Origin: a virus
Lineage: Duplodnaviria; Caudoviricetes
IMG/VR virus record: IMGVR_UViG_3300030104_001141
Coordinates: 1-58,751 of that record
Strand: one strand, 5' to 3'
Length of the DNA stretch: 58,751 nucleotides
Shown here: in pieces, positions 1,393 to 5,467 of the stretch
How positions within the stretch are numbered: the stretch's first letter is position 1
How the letters are laid out: each line of letters starts with the position of its first letter
Notes under the pieces: generated by a model
The model's input: the letters and a program-made list of their open reading frames with translations, nothing else
What the model was told of the DNA's origin: nothing
The model's database searches: none
Position numbers and translations under genes: made by a program

Positions 1393-1423
1393 TTGCAATT
1401 GTGGGGTAATCCATGTTTATAAT
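1393..1423 (+). promoter_or_regulatory. Putative sigma70 early promoter
   Basis: TTGCAA (1393-1398), 19-nt spacer, TATAAT (1418-1423); the spacer is longer than optimal. Confidence 0.5.
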
Positions 1424-1429
1424 ACCCTG

Positions 1430-1868
1430 TCGTTTGGGATTGTCGTTGAAAAACCCCTTTCCAAACACGCCCTAGTGGGACACTCATTGTCCCCATGAGA
1501 GCCGGTCGCAAGGACTTGGTTCGAGGGTTCAAGCCTAGAGCCTGAATCGACACATGGGACATAATCGAGAAGAGGTAACCTGAAAATCCTCACCACGAAA
1601 AATCCGGACTTCATGTTTTTGAGAGTTTATTCAGGGTTGAGAGAGTGTTGTCTCATTGAGAACGATTCTGTCCATTAGCGAATGTCCTAGCAAGACTAAA
1701 GGTTTGGGTGGTTTCCGGAGAGTTGAGATTCCCACAGAACACAAAACTCAAGAATATCAATATGTGCTAAGGCTATGCTGGTGATGAACCGGTGTGTAAC
1801 TTGCTTGTCTCTAGGGACTAAACTTGTGAGTGTGTAAAGTAGCTAATCCCAAAGTGATAAGTCTAGGT
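1430..1868 (+). ncRNA. Putative large structured ncRNA, class unassigned
   Basis: GC-rich and without a credible ORF; 1433-1442 pairs with 1844-1853; GCAA tetraloop hairpin 1499-1522; further helices. Confidence 0.65.
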
Positions 1869-1895
1869 AATAATTTAATTTTATGGAGAAAATTT

Positions 1896-2177
1896 ATGAA
1901 TAAAATAAAAGCATTGTTGAGTTTGGTTGAATGTGAGATGAAAAGATATTATGACCCCTTTTGGAGTGATGGTAAGGATGTAATCCTTGATGATATCGCC
2001 AGTATTTTGGAGATAGCATCATTACTTTCTAGTGCCAAAGTTAGCAAGAAAGCGTTGAAATCGCATTTCAATACGCTTGATACTGAATTGAGAGACACGA
2101 TTTCATGTTTCTTAAAAAATGAAGATAACATTCATCAAGCCATGTATGAGTGTGGATATATCGTTATTTCTGAATAA
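1896..2177 (+). CDS. Hypothetical early protein
   Basis: GGAG SD before ATG 1896; leader identical to that of the 2270 gene. Confidence 0.8.
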   Translation: MNKIKALLSLVECEMKRYYDPFWSDGKDVILDDIASILEIASLLSSAKVSKKALKSHFNTLDTELRDTISCFLKNEDNIHQAMYECGYIVISE

Positions 2178-2242
2178 ACCTACTGATGAGCAACACTGAA
2201 AGGTGGCGAAACTTAAGGCTCTTTTGAGCCTTTTGTTTAGGT
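2178..2242 (+). ncRNA. Hammerhead ribozyme 1 (type I), predicted cleavage GUU after 2237
   Basis: Stem I ACCTA/TAGGT; CTGATGA 2183-2189; stem II with GAAA loop; GAAAC 2208-2212; stem III AAGGCTC/GAGCCTT; distal stem GTTATT/AATAAT. Confidence 0.9.
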
Positions 2243-2269: not shown

Positions 2270-2593
2270 ATGAAAGCAGAAAAAATAATTGAGCATATCA
2301 CTAAATCTTTTAACAAATATCTTGATGAAAGTGGGATGGAAGAACTTATTCCAAACCATAAAAAAGATGCTTGGAAAGATTTGATTATTAGAGAATCTGA
2401 AGAAGAAAATGAAGTGGTTGAGATACTATATGATGGTGGCTACTGTTACGACATGATTAACGAAACATGGGATGAGTGTGGTGGATATACAAACTGGGAA
2501 ACTGCTGAAATGCTATTTGGTTTGAAATCCTTAGAGAAAAAAGGACATGAAGCTGAACCTTATGCATCATGGAAAATATCTGTTTATGCTTGA
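2270..2593 (+). CDS. Hypothetical acidic early protein
   Basis: ORF with GGAG SD, bracketed by hammerheads 1 and 2. Confidence 0.8.
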   Translation: MKAEKIIEHITKSFNKYLDESGMEELIPNHKKDAWKDLIIRESEEENEVVEILYDGGYCYDMINETWDECGGYTNWETAEMLFGLKSLEKKGHEAEPYASWKISVYA

Positions 2594-2597
2594 TAAA

Positions 2598-2662
2598 ACC
2601 TACTGATGAGCAACACTGAAAGGTGGCGAAACTTGGGACTTTCCGGAGTCCCAATTCTAGGT
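2598..2662 (+). ncRNA. Hammerhead ribozyme 2 (type I), predicted cleavage UUC after 2657
   Basis: 39 nt identical to HHR1 (2596-2634 = 2176-2214); different stem III TTGGGACTT/GAGTCCCAA with UCCG loop; distal stem TGTTTAT/ATAAACA. Confidence 0.9.
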
Positions 2663-2697: not shown

Positions 2698-2886
2698 ATG
2701 AATAAACCTGAAGCAAATAAACTTTACGCCTTAACTGGTGGGACTGGAGAGCCTTGTATTGCAAATGGCAACACTTGGGCAGAAAGTGAAGTTAAACCTA
2801 AATGTAATCGCTGTGGTGTTGTTGTCTTTCCTGAAGATGATAACTGTTGTGATAGATGTTTAGAATTGTCTTTTAACGAGGAGTAA
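2698..2886 (+). CDS. Small Cys-rich (Zn-finger-like) protein
   Basis: CNRC...CCDRC; AGGAG SD. Confidence 0.7.
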   Translation: MNKPEANKLYALTGGTGEPCIANGNTWAESEVKPKCNRCGVVVFPEDDNCCDRCLELSFNEE

Positions 2887-2888
2887 AT

Positions 2889-3077
2889 ATGACAGAATTT
2901 AATCAAGAAAAATACCTGAAAAAATGCTTGAAAGAAGCAAGAGGAAAATTAGCGTATGCAGTTATGAATGATATGTCTGATGTTGTAATTGAGAGTTGTG
3001 AAGATTCTTGTAAAAGACTTGCTACAGCATTAGAAGATGTTAGATACGAAAAAAAATATGGGAGTGATTATGAATGA
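2889..3077 (+). CDS. Hypothetical protein
   Basis: GAGGAG SD; tight operon packing. Confidence 0.7.
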   Translation: MTEFNQEKYLKKCLKEARGKLAYAVMNDMSDVVIESCEDSCKRLATALEDVRYEKKYGSDYE

Positions 3078-3228
3078 ACCTGAAGCAAATAACGAATCAG
3101 TAAAAATAACCTGTGAAGAATGTTATGGAAGTGGCGTATCAAGAACTATTAATGGAGATATGGGAGTTGATAATTGTTGGTGTTGTGATGGATATGGATA
3201 TTATAGAGAATATTACACTAAGGAGTGA
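3070..3228 (+). CDS. Small DnaJ-type Zn-finger-like protein
   Basis: CEECYGSG...CWCCDGYG; GGAG SD before ATG 3070. Confidence 0.7.
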   Translation: MNEPEANNESVKITCEECYGSGVSRTINGDMGVDNCWCCDGYGYYREYYTKE

Positions 3229-3230
3229 TT

Positions 3231-3359
3231 ATGAATAAATCAAAAAGAAAAGTGGTGGTAAATAAAAAAGATAAATTGATATCTATGAAAATTTACAAGC
3301 CAAAAGTAAAAAAGAAAACAGCATTTCAAGTAGCTTTTGAAAATGCTAAGGGTGTATAG
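3231..3359 (+). CDS. Small basic protein (42 aa, not in the ORF track)
   Basis: AGGAG SD; MNKSKRKVVV...FENAKGV*. Confidence 0.55.
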   Translation: MNKSKRKVVVNKKDKLISMKIYKPKVKKKTAFQVAFENAKGV

Positions 3360-3412
3360 GTAAATTTACCAGTGGTTTGGCTAGTACCACATACCTTAAA
3401 ACTAGCCATCTA
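3349..3412 (+). ncRNA. Pseudoknot element PK1
   Basis: GTGGT/ACCAC hairpin whose loop TGGCTAGT (3378-3385) pairs with ACTAGCCA (3401-3408); outer stem AGGGTGT/ATACCTT. Confidence 0.65.
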
Positions 3413-3416
3413 ATTT

Positions 3417-3471
3417 TGACTATCGTATAGGAATAGTACCTATGCCTGAATGAGTAACTGCGAAATAGTCA
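3417..3471 (+). ncRNA. Hammerhead ribozyme 3 (type III, core variant CUGAAUGA), predicted cleavage AUC after 3424
   Basis: Stem III TGACTAT/ATAGTCA; stem I GTATAGG/CCTATGC; CTGAATGA 3446-3453; short stem II; GAAA 3462-3465. Confidence 0.8.
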
Positions 3472-3504
3472 TTTCAGTTTTATTAATCGCAAAATGGAGT
3501 AAAT

Positions 3505-4488
3505 ATGAAAGCGAAACAATTAGAAAAATCACTTTCGACTCTAATATCTATCAAGCAACCATCATTTATTTGGGGTGGCGTTGGTATTGGTAAATCAGAA
3601 ATTATCCACAAAGTTGGAGAATCTTTGGGTTATCAAATAAGAGATGTTAGGGTTTCACTACTTGACCCTGTGGACTTAAGGGGTATTCCTAGCGTAGAAA
3701 ATGGAACTACTGTTTGGAATCCACCTGTCTTTTTACCTACTGAAGATGAGCCAAAAACATTACTATTCCTAGATGAGTTACCTCATGGGAGTCCTAGTGT
3801 TCAAAATGCATTATTTCAGTTAGTTAAAGATAGGCAATTGGGTGAGTATAAATTACCTGATTCGACAGTCATTGTCAGTGCTGGTAATAGGTTACAAGAT
3901 AAAGCCGGTGCGAATAGGGTTAATACAGCATTGGGAGATAGATTTATTCATTTAGATTTTGAACCTTGTCCTGATGAGTGGATTGCATGGGCAAAATCAA
4001 GTGGAAAGATTATGCCTGAAATCATAGCGTATATGAGATATAGACCGGAGAATTTATTTGTATTTGATAAAAATGCAAGAGTAAATACTACGCCTAGAAG
4101 TTGGGAATATGCTTCAAGGATTATGTCTGAATGTCCTGATTCTGATATTGAGCATGAGTTACTTTCCGGAACTATTGGAGAGGGTGTGAGTGCTGAATTG
4201 ATAGGTTTCTTGAGAACTGTTAGAGGTTTACCATCACTTGATAAAATCTTGAATGACCCTGAGAGCCTTGATACTGAATCTGACCCTGCGATTCTTTATG
4301 CGATTACAAGCATAATTGCTAGGAAGATGGATAAGACAAACATTGATAAGTTTGTAAAATACTTGGACACATTACCTGATGAGTTCGCTATTTTATGTAT
4401 GACTGATGCAGTGGAATCGAATCCTGACATTAGAAAAACCAAAGCGTTTATTAATTTTGATATCAAGCATCAAGACATTACGCTTTAA
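3505..4488 (+). CDS. MoxR-like AAA+ ATPase
   Basis: Walker A GGVGIGKS, Walker B LLFLDE, AGN sensor, ALGDRF, TPRSW. Confidence 0.9.
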   Translation: MKAKQLEKSLSTLISIKQPSFIWGGVGIGKSEIIHKVGESLGYQIRDVRVSLLDPVDLRGIPSVENGTTVWNPPVFLPTEDEPKTLLFLDELPHGSPSVQNALFQLVKDRQLGEYKLPDSTVIVSAGNRLQDKAGANRVNTALGDRFIHLDFEPCPDEWIAWAKSSGKIMPEIIAYMRYRPENLFVFDKNARVNTTPRSWEYASRIMSECPDSDIEHELLSGTIGEGVSAELIGFLRTVRGLPSLDKILNDPESLDTESDPAILYAITSIIARKMDKTNIDKFVKYLDTLPDEFAILCMTDAVESNPDIRKTKAFINFDIKHQDITL

Positions 4489-4549
4489 ACCGACTGATGA
4501 TTAGTTGAGATGCTATGAAAACATCCCATGTATTTGGGATGTTATTGGT
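4489..4549 (+). ncRNA. Hammerhead ribozyme 4 (type I), predicted cleavage UUA after 4544
   Basis: Stem I ACCGA/TTGGT; CTGATGA 4494-4500; stem II TAGT/GCTA with TGAGAT loop; GAAA; stem III AACATCCCA/TGGGATGTT. Confidence 0.85.
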
Positions 4550-4591
4550 AACAAGTATTAACTGATTAATACTTAAACATGGAGAAATATT

Positions 4592-5467
4592 ATGGCAGTA
4601 GCCCTAAATGAAAAAGCCATGCTCATCAAAGTTGAACTCAAGAAATGGGGTGGAACTAAAACTGATAAATCCTTATCAGAAAAAATTGGATATGATTCTA
4701 ATACTGATGCAAGTTTGTATTCAGTATCAAAGAAACTAACCAATTCCACCACGCTGAAAGAGATTAAAAAAATTGATGGATTGATAAGAACTGACTGCAT
4801 CTATTCCGGTGCTGGTTATAGAGGTTTTTGTCATGCATGGGATAATAATGGAAACTATCTATTACCTATTGATGCAAAAGATAGGTTTGAGAAAAGGTTT
4901 TCATCTTATAGAGATGATAGAGAGAAATTGGTAAAACAATTTGTTTCTGAATATCCGGATATCATCAAAGATGCACAAAGAGAATTTGGTGCAAATTTCA
5001 AAGCAGATGATTTTCCACATGAAACTGAAATTGGCGAATGTTTTTCTTGCGAAGTAATCAAGAATGTAGTTCCCTCTACTGATGATATTAGAATTAATTT
5101 ATCAAAAGATGAGATTGATGAACTAAAAGCAAATGCCAAAAAGCAAGAAAATGAAAGAGTAGAAAAGATTACTTCAGATGTTGTTGATAAAATGACTGGA
5201 GTTCTTGGACATCTTGCAGAAAGAATCAATGATGGTGAGACCTTTAGAGATTCTACACTTGATAAGGTTATTGATTTGTGCGAAACAATACCGGCATTGA
5301 ATGTTGGTGGTGATGCAAAAATTCATAAGGCTCATCAAGACTTGATGGACATATTTGCCGGTAATGATATTACTGCTGAATCATTAAGAGATGATAAAGA
5401 CAAGGCTAAAGAAATTGCTAAAAAGTCTGAGGAAATCATTGATGATTTAGAGGGATGGTTAGACTAA
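4592..5467 (+). CDS. DUF3150-like protein of the AAA/vWA cluster
   Basis: Helical protein between the AAA ATPase and vWA genes; family assignment from recall and context. Confidence 0.5.
   Translation: MAVALNEKAMLIKVELKKWGGTKTDKSLSEKIGYDSNTDASLYSVSKKLTNSTTLKEIKKIDGLIRTDCIYSGAGYRGFCHAWDNNGNYLLPIDAKDRFEKRFSSYRDDREKLVKQFVSEYPDIIKDAQREFGANFKADDFPHETEIGECFSCEVIKNVVPSTDDIRINLSKDEIDELKANAKKQENERVEKITSDVVDKMTGVLGHLAERINDGETFRDSTLDKVIDLCETIPALNVGGDAKIHKAHQDLMDIFAGNDITAESLRDDKDKAKEIAKKSEEIIDDLEGWLD

Follow-up and report, generated by a model that had tools for sequence, protein, structure and literature searches.

Background

Tandem hammerhead ribozymes that flank short genes in prophage and phage transcripts, presumably cutting them into gene-length messenger RNAs (mRNAs), have been described by Perreault et al. 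2011 (PMC3088659), and the sections of that paper considered here also report natural U3-A8 cores, an extra nucleotide after A6, a one-pair stem II, U10.1-U11.1 and weak stems III. A different arrangement is the discontinuous hammerhead in the 3' untranslated region (UTR) of mammalian Clec2 (Martick et al. 2008, as related in the available part of PMC2950038), in which substrate and enzyme strands lie on one transcript with a long loop insertion. According to the same part of PMC2950038, reporter expression in cells is reduced by hammerheads whose loop 1 or loop 3 carries a long insertion, which provides a precedent for a discontinuous fold. Finally, the excerpted text of Eckert et al. 2023 (PMC10085705) describes hammerhead permutations in terms of Blocks S, C and G and mentions an unexplained invariant 5-bp stem I in one group. 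Here we analyse the complete virus record IMGVR_UViG_3300030104_001141 (Duplodnaviria; Caudoviricetes; 58,751 nucleotides (nt), CheckV completeness 100; the whole stretch is referred to as the window), in which a short hammerhead substrate without a core of its own, Block S at 1858-1868, stands just behind a structured leader RNA (1430-1852) and matches the arms of the first hammerhead core downstream.

As in the systems of PMC3088659, several hammerheads are placed between the genes of an operon, and all of the core variants listed above are present in the window or its relatives. In that paper, as far as its consulted sections go, each site has its own adjacent core, whereas a core-less site that is matched one gene away and ends a large structured RNA is not described there. 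The locus resembles the account of Clec2 in having both strands on one transcript and in the type III topology with a very large loop that the pairing would create. It differs from that account in that a translated gene, ~310-370 nt long and part of a phage operon, would be the insert, and in that the core also has an adjacent substrate of its own with a closed stem III hairpin, so that the remote strand must compete. In the terms of PMC10085705, as given in its excerpt, the site is a lone Block S which forms S-C-G (type III) with the downstream blocks, while the core and its own site form C-G-S (type I); unlike in the cases treated there, no permutation is required and the new point would be two S blocks per C-G pair. 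No description of a hammerhead core from phages or bacteria that has a second substrate at a distance was found in the literature, searched by titles and abstract openings with incomplete coverage.

Results and discussion

A hammerhead substrate without an adjacent core

Block S (plus strand) consists of UAAGU (1858-1862) as stem III strand, C1863, and UAGGU (1864-1868) as stem I strand, with a predicted cut after 1863. The first-pass annotation of this DNA had pointed out TAAGT-C-TAGGT as a target without an adjoining core, and the sequence agrees with this: no usable core exists in 1400-1900, where five matches to YTGANRA or YTGANNRA occur, none of them with a flank able to pair with TAGGT. 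The UAGGU strand opens a 5' UTR module (UAGGUAAUAA...GGAG...AUG, 1864-1900, plus strand) whose 37 nt are exactly identical to 2238-2274, as the same annotation had stated; extended upstream, 1861-1900 and 2235-2274 form a 40-nt repeat with a single mismatch (GTC/GTT). Exact occurrences of TAGGTAATAA in the window number three, at 1864, 2238 and 2658.

The module leads into open reading frame (ORF) 1 (1896-2177, plus strand, 93 amino acids, no Pfam family), which is followed by the type I hammerhead HHR1 (2178-2242, plus strand). Its parts are stem I ACCUA (2178-2182), the core (2183-2189), stem II (2190-2207), GAA (2208-2210) and an arm starting with A2211 (ACTTAAGG); its own site is GUU with a predicted cut after 2237, and 2238-2242 provide the stem I strand. 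ORF2 (2270-2593, plus strand, 107 amino acids, no Pfam family) comes next, and behind it lies a second type I hammerhead, HHR2 (2598-2662, plus strand), with the arm ACUUG from A2631 (ACTTGGGA), the own site UUC and a predicted cut after 2657. Both have a CUGANGA...GAAA core with stem II, an NUH site, the A15.1-U16.1 pair and five of five pairs in stem I (ACCUA/UAGGU in both), and their 29-nt units of core plus stem II (2183-2211 and 2603-2631) are identical, with 0.11 such units expected and a count of two reached by 2 of 100 shuffles. Close to the core their own stems III are imperfect, and the two defects reported earlier are both real: outward from the core, HHR1 has two pairs, two mismatches (a UU/UU loop) and four pairs, and HHR2 one pair, the C15.2-U16.2 mismatch and six pairs. 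The HHR1 stem III hairpin together with UUGUUU (2215-2242) also looks like a terminator; a transcription stop there, if real, would leave HHR1 without its own stem I partner.

At the gathering score a search of the whole window yielded no Rfam family, and at E<=10 (1250-2750 and 2700-4700) the sole matches were sub-threshold ones to HHR1 and HHR2, the best being Hammerhead_3 (24.5 versus 48.5) and RAGATH-1 (RF03152; 23.4 and 19.5 bits versus a gathering score of 56.3). Among the Rfam models RAGATH-1 aligned best over the full length of HHR2 and HHR1, and it is similar in its type I topology, open 5-bp stem I, closed stem III hairpin and A-rich 5' flank. On the other hand, besides the low scores, its upstream hairpin columns align poorly and the stem I sequence differs, and HHR1 and HHR2 are not counted as members of this family.

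Between Block S and the HHR1 arms all ten pairs are Watson-Crick, and with HHR2 five contiguous stem III pairs form, including one G-U, both as had been proposed. The constituents of a discontinuous hammerhead are present in that an NUH substrate block without adjacent core is complementary to the arms of a core on the same transcript. The window has 193 TAGGT sites on its two strands, and in 5 of them NUH and a 5-nt arm match stand in front, i.e. ~2.6% per site. The 11-mer YRRGTHTRGGT occurs seven times in the window against 1.19 expected, a number that none of 100 shuffles reached; the other six copies (725, 17481, 17710, 26333, 33731 and 54501) were set aside, as they lie in coding or unrelated contexts and look like TRGGT-N-TRGGT quasi-repeats.

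Distribution of the core-less site among relatives

Relatives were found via the ATPase gene of the operon and by three pattern scans. One locus, L003, proved to be an unrelated phage, L027 and L038 were chance pattern matches, as were ~12 of the 27 loci of one pattern scan, and a further scan for relatives gave no new lineage. The last invariant block of the leader RNA, AUCCCA (1846-1851), served as the reference point, the tail beyond it being variable.

In lineage a, i.e. the window and the identical L033, AUCCCA is followed by AAGUGAUAAGUC up to the predicted cut and then by UAGGUAAUAA, without a core. The corresponding tails are AAGCGAUAAAGUA in lineage b (L014, L023, L026, L036) and AAGCGAUAAAAUA in lineage c (L013, L019, L021), each again followed by UAGGUAAUAA and lacking a core. 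Lineage d (L024, L031) has the tail of lineage a and then a complete type I hammerhead. No such site is present in lineage e (L011, L012, L016, L018, L032, L043, L052 and others), where a U run precedes a compact type III-like element (CUGAAYGAG), while lineage f (L017, L034, L037) has UGUUGAAAUGUC UUGGU and then a type III-like element. Finally, lineage g (L044/L057, L053/L056/L082, L045/L062/L063) shows UGUUGAA(A)UUGUC directly before UUGAUAAAC, and no core.

A homologue of ORF2 stands as the first gene in lineages b and c, where one hammerhead follows it, and ORF1 with HHR1 is absent (L013, L014, L023). The presence of the core-less site in these genomes shows that ORF1 with HHR1 is an extra cassette and that the site predates the duplication seen in the window. 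The alternative offered by the first-pass annotation, namely that the site is a relic of the window's own cassette duplication, is refuted by the same observation, since NUH followed by UAGGUAAUAA occurs without a core in relatives that never show ORF1 and HHR1. In a tree calculated from 260 nt at the 3' end of the leader RNA, the longest branch splits lineages a-d from e-g, and over these 3' ~260 nt the window is 62-64% identical to lineage g. Core-less sites in a-c and in g therefore lie on both sides of the longest branch, in each case 12-13 nt past AUCCCA. Lineages that lack a matched site mostly carry a ribozyme of their own straight after the leader RNA: L024/L031 have a type I hammerhead there, the L011/L012/L016/L018 group a type III-like element.

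Match of the site to the arms of the first downstream core

Type I hammerheads were parsed in 14 genome stretches (24 rows including repeats), and stem III was scored as the number of contiguous standard pairs outward from 15.1/16.1. The core-less site matched the first downstream hammerhead in all six sub-lineages with visible downstream DNA, with five of five stem I pairs in every case and stem III scores of 5 for both HHR1 and HHR2 of the window, 4 in lineage b, 4 in lineage c, and 5, 5 and 5 in the three sub-lineages g1, g2 and g3. As a control, the arm of each hammerhead was paired with the own site of the preceding one, which gave stem III scores of 2, 2, 2, 3, 3, 2, 1 and 4 (n=8) and mostly 5/5 in stem I; among 221 non-cognate combinations of arm and site, counted for stem III only, 28 reach at least 4 and 14 at least 5.

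Between the two arm classes five positions of the site change (UAGGU to UUGAU and UAAGU to AUUGU) and the arms of the core follow (ACCUA to AUCAA and ACUUA to ACAAU), the first hammerhead of lineage g having stem I AUCAA and the arm ACAAU opposite a site that reads AUUGUC before the cut and UUGAU after it. Within class 1, lineage c has A16.2 in the site and U15.2 in the arm where lineages a and b have G and C (G:C to A:U), and with each of 13 other arms the lineage c site makes a pairing of 1 nt only. NUH is retained in all variants as GUC, GUA, AUA and GUC. The earlier expectation that TAAGTC should be conserved in relatives therefore fails for the letters (GUC, GUA, AUA; UAAGU, AAAGU, AAAAU, AUUGU) but holds for NUH and for the complementarity to the cognate arm.

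Behind a core-less site the hammerheads pair only weakly in their own stem III next to the core, with 2 and 1 contiguous pairs in the window, 1 in lineage b and 2 in lineage c, and a 5-bp stem plus tetraloop in lineage g, whereas those at other junctions have at least 8 contiguous pairs, except for one 5-bp stem in L031. Judged by sequence comparison, Block S is a mark of the 3' boundary of the leader RNA at the head of the early operon, old and fixed in position, and its sequence appears to change with the arms of the first hammerhead downstream.

Proposed cleavage by a shared core and its alternatives

We regard a discontinuous type III hammerhead, which shares its core with a type I hammerhead and cuts at C1863, as the single most likely explanation, with a probability of roughly 45%. 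The first downstream core (HHR1, with HHR2 as second candidate) would pair with the block through stem I (ACCUA/UAGGU) and stem III (ACUUA or ACUUG/UAAGU). The resulting S-C-G hammerhead, in which the whole first gene (ORF1 in the window) would constitute loop I, is predicted to cut after C1863, and the identical core would also cut its own adjacent site, i.e. a single enzyme would act on two substrates. Cleavage would yield a free leader RNA, whose end at 1863 is a 2',3'-cyclic phosphate, and a monocistronic mRNA with a 5'-OH on UAGGUAAUAA, like those of the other cassettes. The weak own pairing of stem III next to the core may be what admits the remote strand. That pairing leads to cleavage, and that the events take this order, is what we infer.

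That one core may act on two sites, as the first-pass annotation had suggested, gains from the age of the site, the match in six of six sub-lineages and the co-variation of the arms, as well as from the retained NUH, the weak own stems III behind core-less sites and the ribozymes that stand at this junction in lineages d and e; the folding models favour the own hairpin. In a nearest-neighbour model of 1840-2250 the probability of the remote stem III is only ~2e-4 in the window (1e-4 to 1e-3 in lineage g), compared with 0.97-1.0 for the own hairpin in the window and 0.68-1.0 across the ribozymes modelled, in calculations that leave out tertiary contacts, ribosomes and kinetics. With constraints the window yields -96.5 kcal/mol for the own fold and -94.7 for the discontinuous one, which is 1.8 kcal/mol less stable (unconstrained: -102.3); in lineage g the deficit grows to 4.2-4.9 kcal/mol. 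In favour of the remote site, the window model pairs ACCUA with the upstream UAGGU at 0.65-0.79 and with the downstream copy at 0.002, and its energy deficit is no more than the 1.8 kcal/mol given above. Against it, the own 3' strand is transcribed ~20 nt after the arm, so that the local hairpin should win kinetically. The co-variation comprises approximately three evolutionarily independent comparisons, and in lineage g the site is identical to the ribozyme's own site over 17 nt, with UTR variants common to both places, so that gene conversion or concerted evolution could explain the match there.

These points lend themselves to a quite different explanation, which we consider a real if somewhat less probable possibility: the block might be the 3' remnant of a hammerhead that lost its core, or simply the start of a UTR module kept alike by recombination or gene conversion, and would not be cut at all. 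The leader RNA would then stay on the first mRNA or be trimmed back to its structured body by host ribonucleases. The 37-nt identity in the window shows that such modules get copied, and lineage g indicates that UTR variants move between places. The GAUAAGU tail recurs in L024/L031 with a complete hammerhead behind it, and removing the stretch between two GU dinucleotides from that sequence gives exactly the junction of the window, so that the window form could be a deletion product with an inherited GU-C before UAGGU. Conversely, lineage d could be a window-like form after gene loss, since the UCUAAAUAA in front of its hammerhead looks like an ORF end. Core-less junctions can evidently be left behind, as is seen from L011 (3330-3350), an instance of hammerhead gain or loss at a fixed junction, where a UTR module UAGGUAAAU abuts a stop codon (UCUUAA directly before UAGGU) without core or NUH, while the orthologous junction of L018 carries a full hammerhead. 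Lineage f, too, has a site-like AAAUGUC UUGGU with no matching type I core within ~650 nt, and a type III-like ribozyme of its own.

An uncut remnant accounts less easily for the constant spacing to AUCCCA across two clades with 36-38% divergence between their leader RNAs, in which nevertheless 9-10 of 10 arm pairs form with the cognate core. Nor does it account for the NUH kept in all four variants. In class 1 the site and the UTR evolve as orthologues between genomes and not by copying from the own site, and still the change from G to A in lineage c has its counterpart in a C-to-U change of the arm; crossing-over within the UTR cannot bring along the 5 nt upstream of the cut.

A role without cleavage of the upstream site might also be imagined, in which the upstream UAGGU, with or without UAAGU, acts as a decoy for the stem I strand of the ribozyme and so tunes the rate at which HHR1 cuts its own site, or the interaction with the terminator-like hairpin. 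The preference of ACCUA for the upstream UAGGU in the window model (0.65-0.79, against 0.002 for the downstream copy) would fit such a role, and the HHR1 stem III hairpin with its U run is terminator-like. We nevertheless hold this to be unlikely, as a decoy needs neither a cleavable NUH nor a stem III match, and both are retained; the preference of stem I for the upstream strand is also much weaker in lineage g (0.003-0.04), and finding one terminator-like site where 1.5 are expected has no significance. Still far less probable is a hidden core in 1430-1857 by which the leader RNA itself would cut at 1863. Other lineages often have a ribozyme at the equivalent junction, but 1400-1900 contains no hammerhead-type core whose flank pairs to UAGGU, no Rfam ribozyme family is found there at E<=10, and the invariant blocks of the leader RNA remain unchanged when stem I of the site goes from UAGGU to UUGAU.

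Cleavage at Block S by the shared core could, in an extended form, be part of an addressing system. Stem I is alike in all cassettes of a genome (ACCUA/UAGGU, or AUCAA/UUGAU in the other clade), which would let a core act on foreign junctions. The first core would then cut on both sides of the first gene, and the UAGGU at the 5' end of the mRNA would re-pair with the ribozyme at its 3' end, joining the two ends of the mRNA by pairing or even, through the reverse reaction, by ligation into a circle. We think it improbable that the whole of this scheme applies.

The leader RNA

The leader RNA (~420 nt, 1430-1852, plus strand) is, to judge from its covariation, an undescribed structured RNA family, and conserved versions of it are present in more than 20 viral and metagenome contigs. 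An alignment of 12 distinct sequences (mean column identity 70%) supports a consensus structure of 70 pairs, in which 94.3% of the cells are paired compared with 37-49% when the partners are slid. Compensatory changes are found in 34 of the 70 pairs as opposed to 4-11 in the slid controls, and none of 500 shuffles reaches the observed values. The GC content of 0.45-0.49 exceeds that of the vicinity (~0.33). The single-sequence fold of 1428-1870 gave z = -0.01, i.e. no thermodynamic signal, so that the structure is detectable by covariation only. By eye and in the single fold, UUUGGGAUU (1433-1441) and AAUCCCAAA (1845-1853) seemed to form a closing helix; this was discarded as unsupported by covariation, which pairs the 5' GGGA with a nearby UCCC. 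Rfam contained no family for the leader RNA at the gathering score (whole window) and none of relevance at E<=10 (1250-2750).

The leader RNA sequence is also contained in assembled contigs of four marine or seawater metatranscriptome runs, which cover only parts of 1444-1858 and a little of ORF2, uncovered parts being uninformative. In run X1 a 416-nt contig (depth 20.1, ~95% identical, no loose end listed) spans 1444-1858 and a second one (depth 5.4) touches 2364-2544, while the contigs from runs X5, X6 and X8 fall within 1454-1807. The stop of the first X1 contig at 1858, 5 nt short of the predicted cut, is not evidence for an RNA end, as contigs cannot show these. No host or prophage was found, none of at least 120 loci from a scan of genome contigs carrying the 3' blocks of the leader RNA.

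Genome setting

On the minus strand in front of the leader RNA lie genes for a LexA-like repressor (292-579) and the small terminase (758-1234); a G-rich run, GGTGGGGTGGGTATGGGTGGGG at 716-745, occupies the spacer 3' of the small terminase gene (stop near 755), before the repressor gene. The early operon on the plus strand opens with ~420 nt without a plausible ORF and contains, downstream of the small genes of unknown family, a MoxR-like AAA ATPase gene (3505-4485) and a gene for a DUF2201 protein. Immediately 5' of the leader RNA, the hexamers TTGCAA (1393-1398) and TATAAT (1418-1423) with a spacer of 19 nt resemble a promoter (1393-1423, plus strand); relatives have TTGACA-17-TATAGT or TTGTCA-17-TAAGAT at the equivalent position. 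Their absence from the list of the promoter scan is due to its spacer limit of 16-18. A blastn search of 1380-2700 against a phage collection gave no match.

Further hammerhead-like elements

A compact type III hammerhead-like element is present at 3418-3470. It consists of GACUAU-C, where the cut is predicted to fall after C3424, a stem I hairpin of 7 bp, the core CUGAAUGA with one additional nucleotide following A6, a stem II of one pair, and GAA-AUAGUC. Elements of this type directly follow the leader RNA in lineage e, where the variable core position is Y and a stem II hairpin covaries; lineage f contains a UUGAAGA variant. Behind the ATPase gene, at 4489-4549, a third type I hammerhead (HHR3) has stem I ACCGA/UUGGU, U10.1-U11.1 opening stem II, a perfect stem III and the site UUA with a predicted cut after A4544. 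Neither element matched Rfam at E<=10 in 2700-4700. Two further loci, L008 and L009, carry three hammerheads of the HHR3 class, with stem I ACCAA/UUGGU.

Type I hammerheads with a UUGAUAA core occur in L011 (3765-3835), in L012 (3604-3680 and 3896-3965) and as the second hammerhead of L031. This core represents the compensated U3-A8 form of C3-G8, the orthologues being CUGAUGA (L016) and CUGAAGA (L018). In the early cassettes almost every type I hammerhead, also in distant phages (window, L005, L008, L011, L012, L031, L057), has the stem I RCCUA/UAGGU; the other stem I classes are ACCRA/UUGGU and AUCAA/UUGAU, and stems II and III vary freely.

Conclusion

Even if Block S should turn out to be a relic, the locus would still document the gain and loss of ribozyme cassettes at fixed junctions of phage operons. 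If cleavage by the shared core is true, it would represent a natural discontinuous hammerhead with two substrates outside mammals, and sites of this kind would have been missed by motif searches, since no core is nearby. Hammerheads could then free a large structured RNA from an operon transcript; the RNA that would be released here, ~420 nt in length, appears itself to be an undescribed structured family in related viral and metagenome contigs. Furthermore, hammerheads could define both ends of a cistron, which bears on the role of bacterial and phage hammerheads in general.

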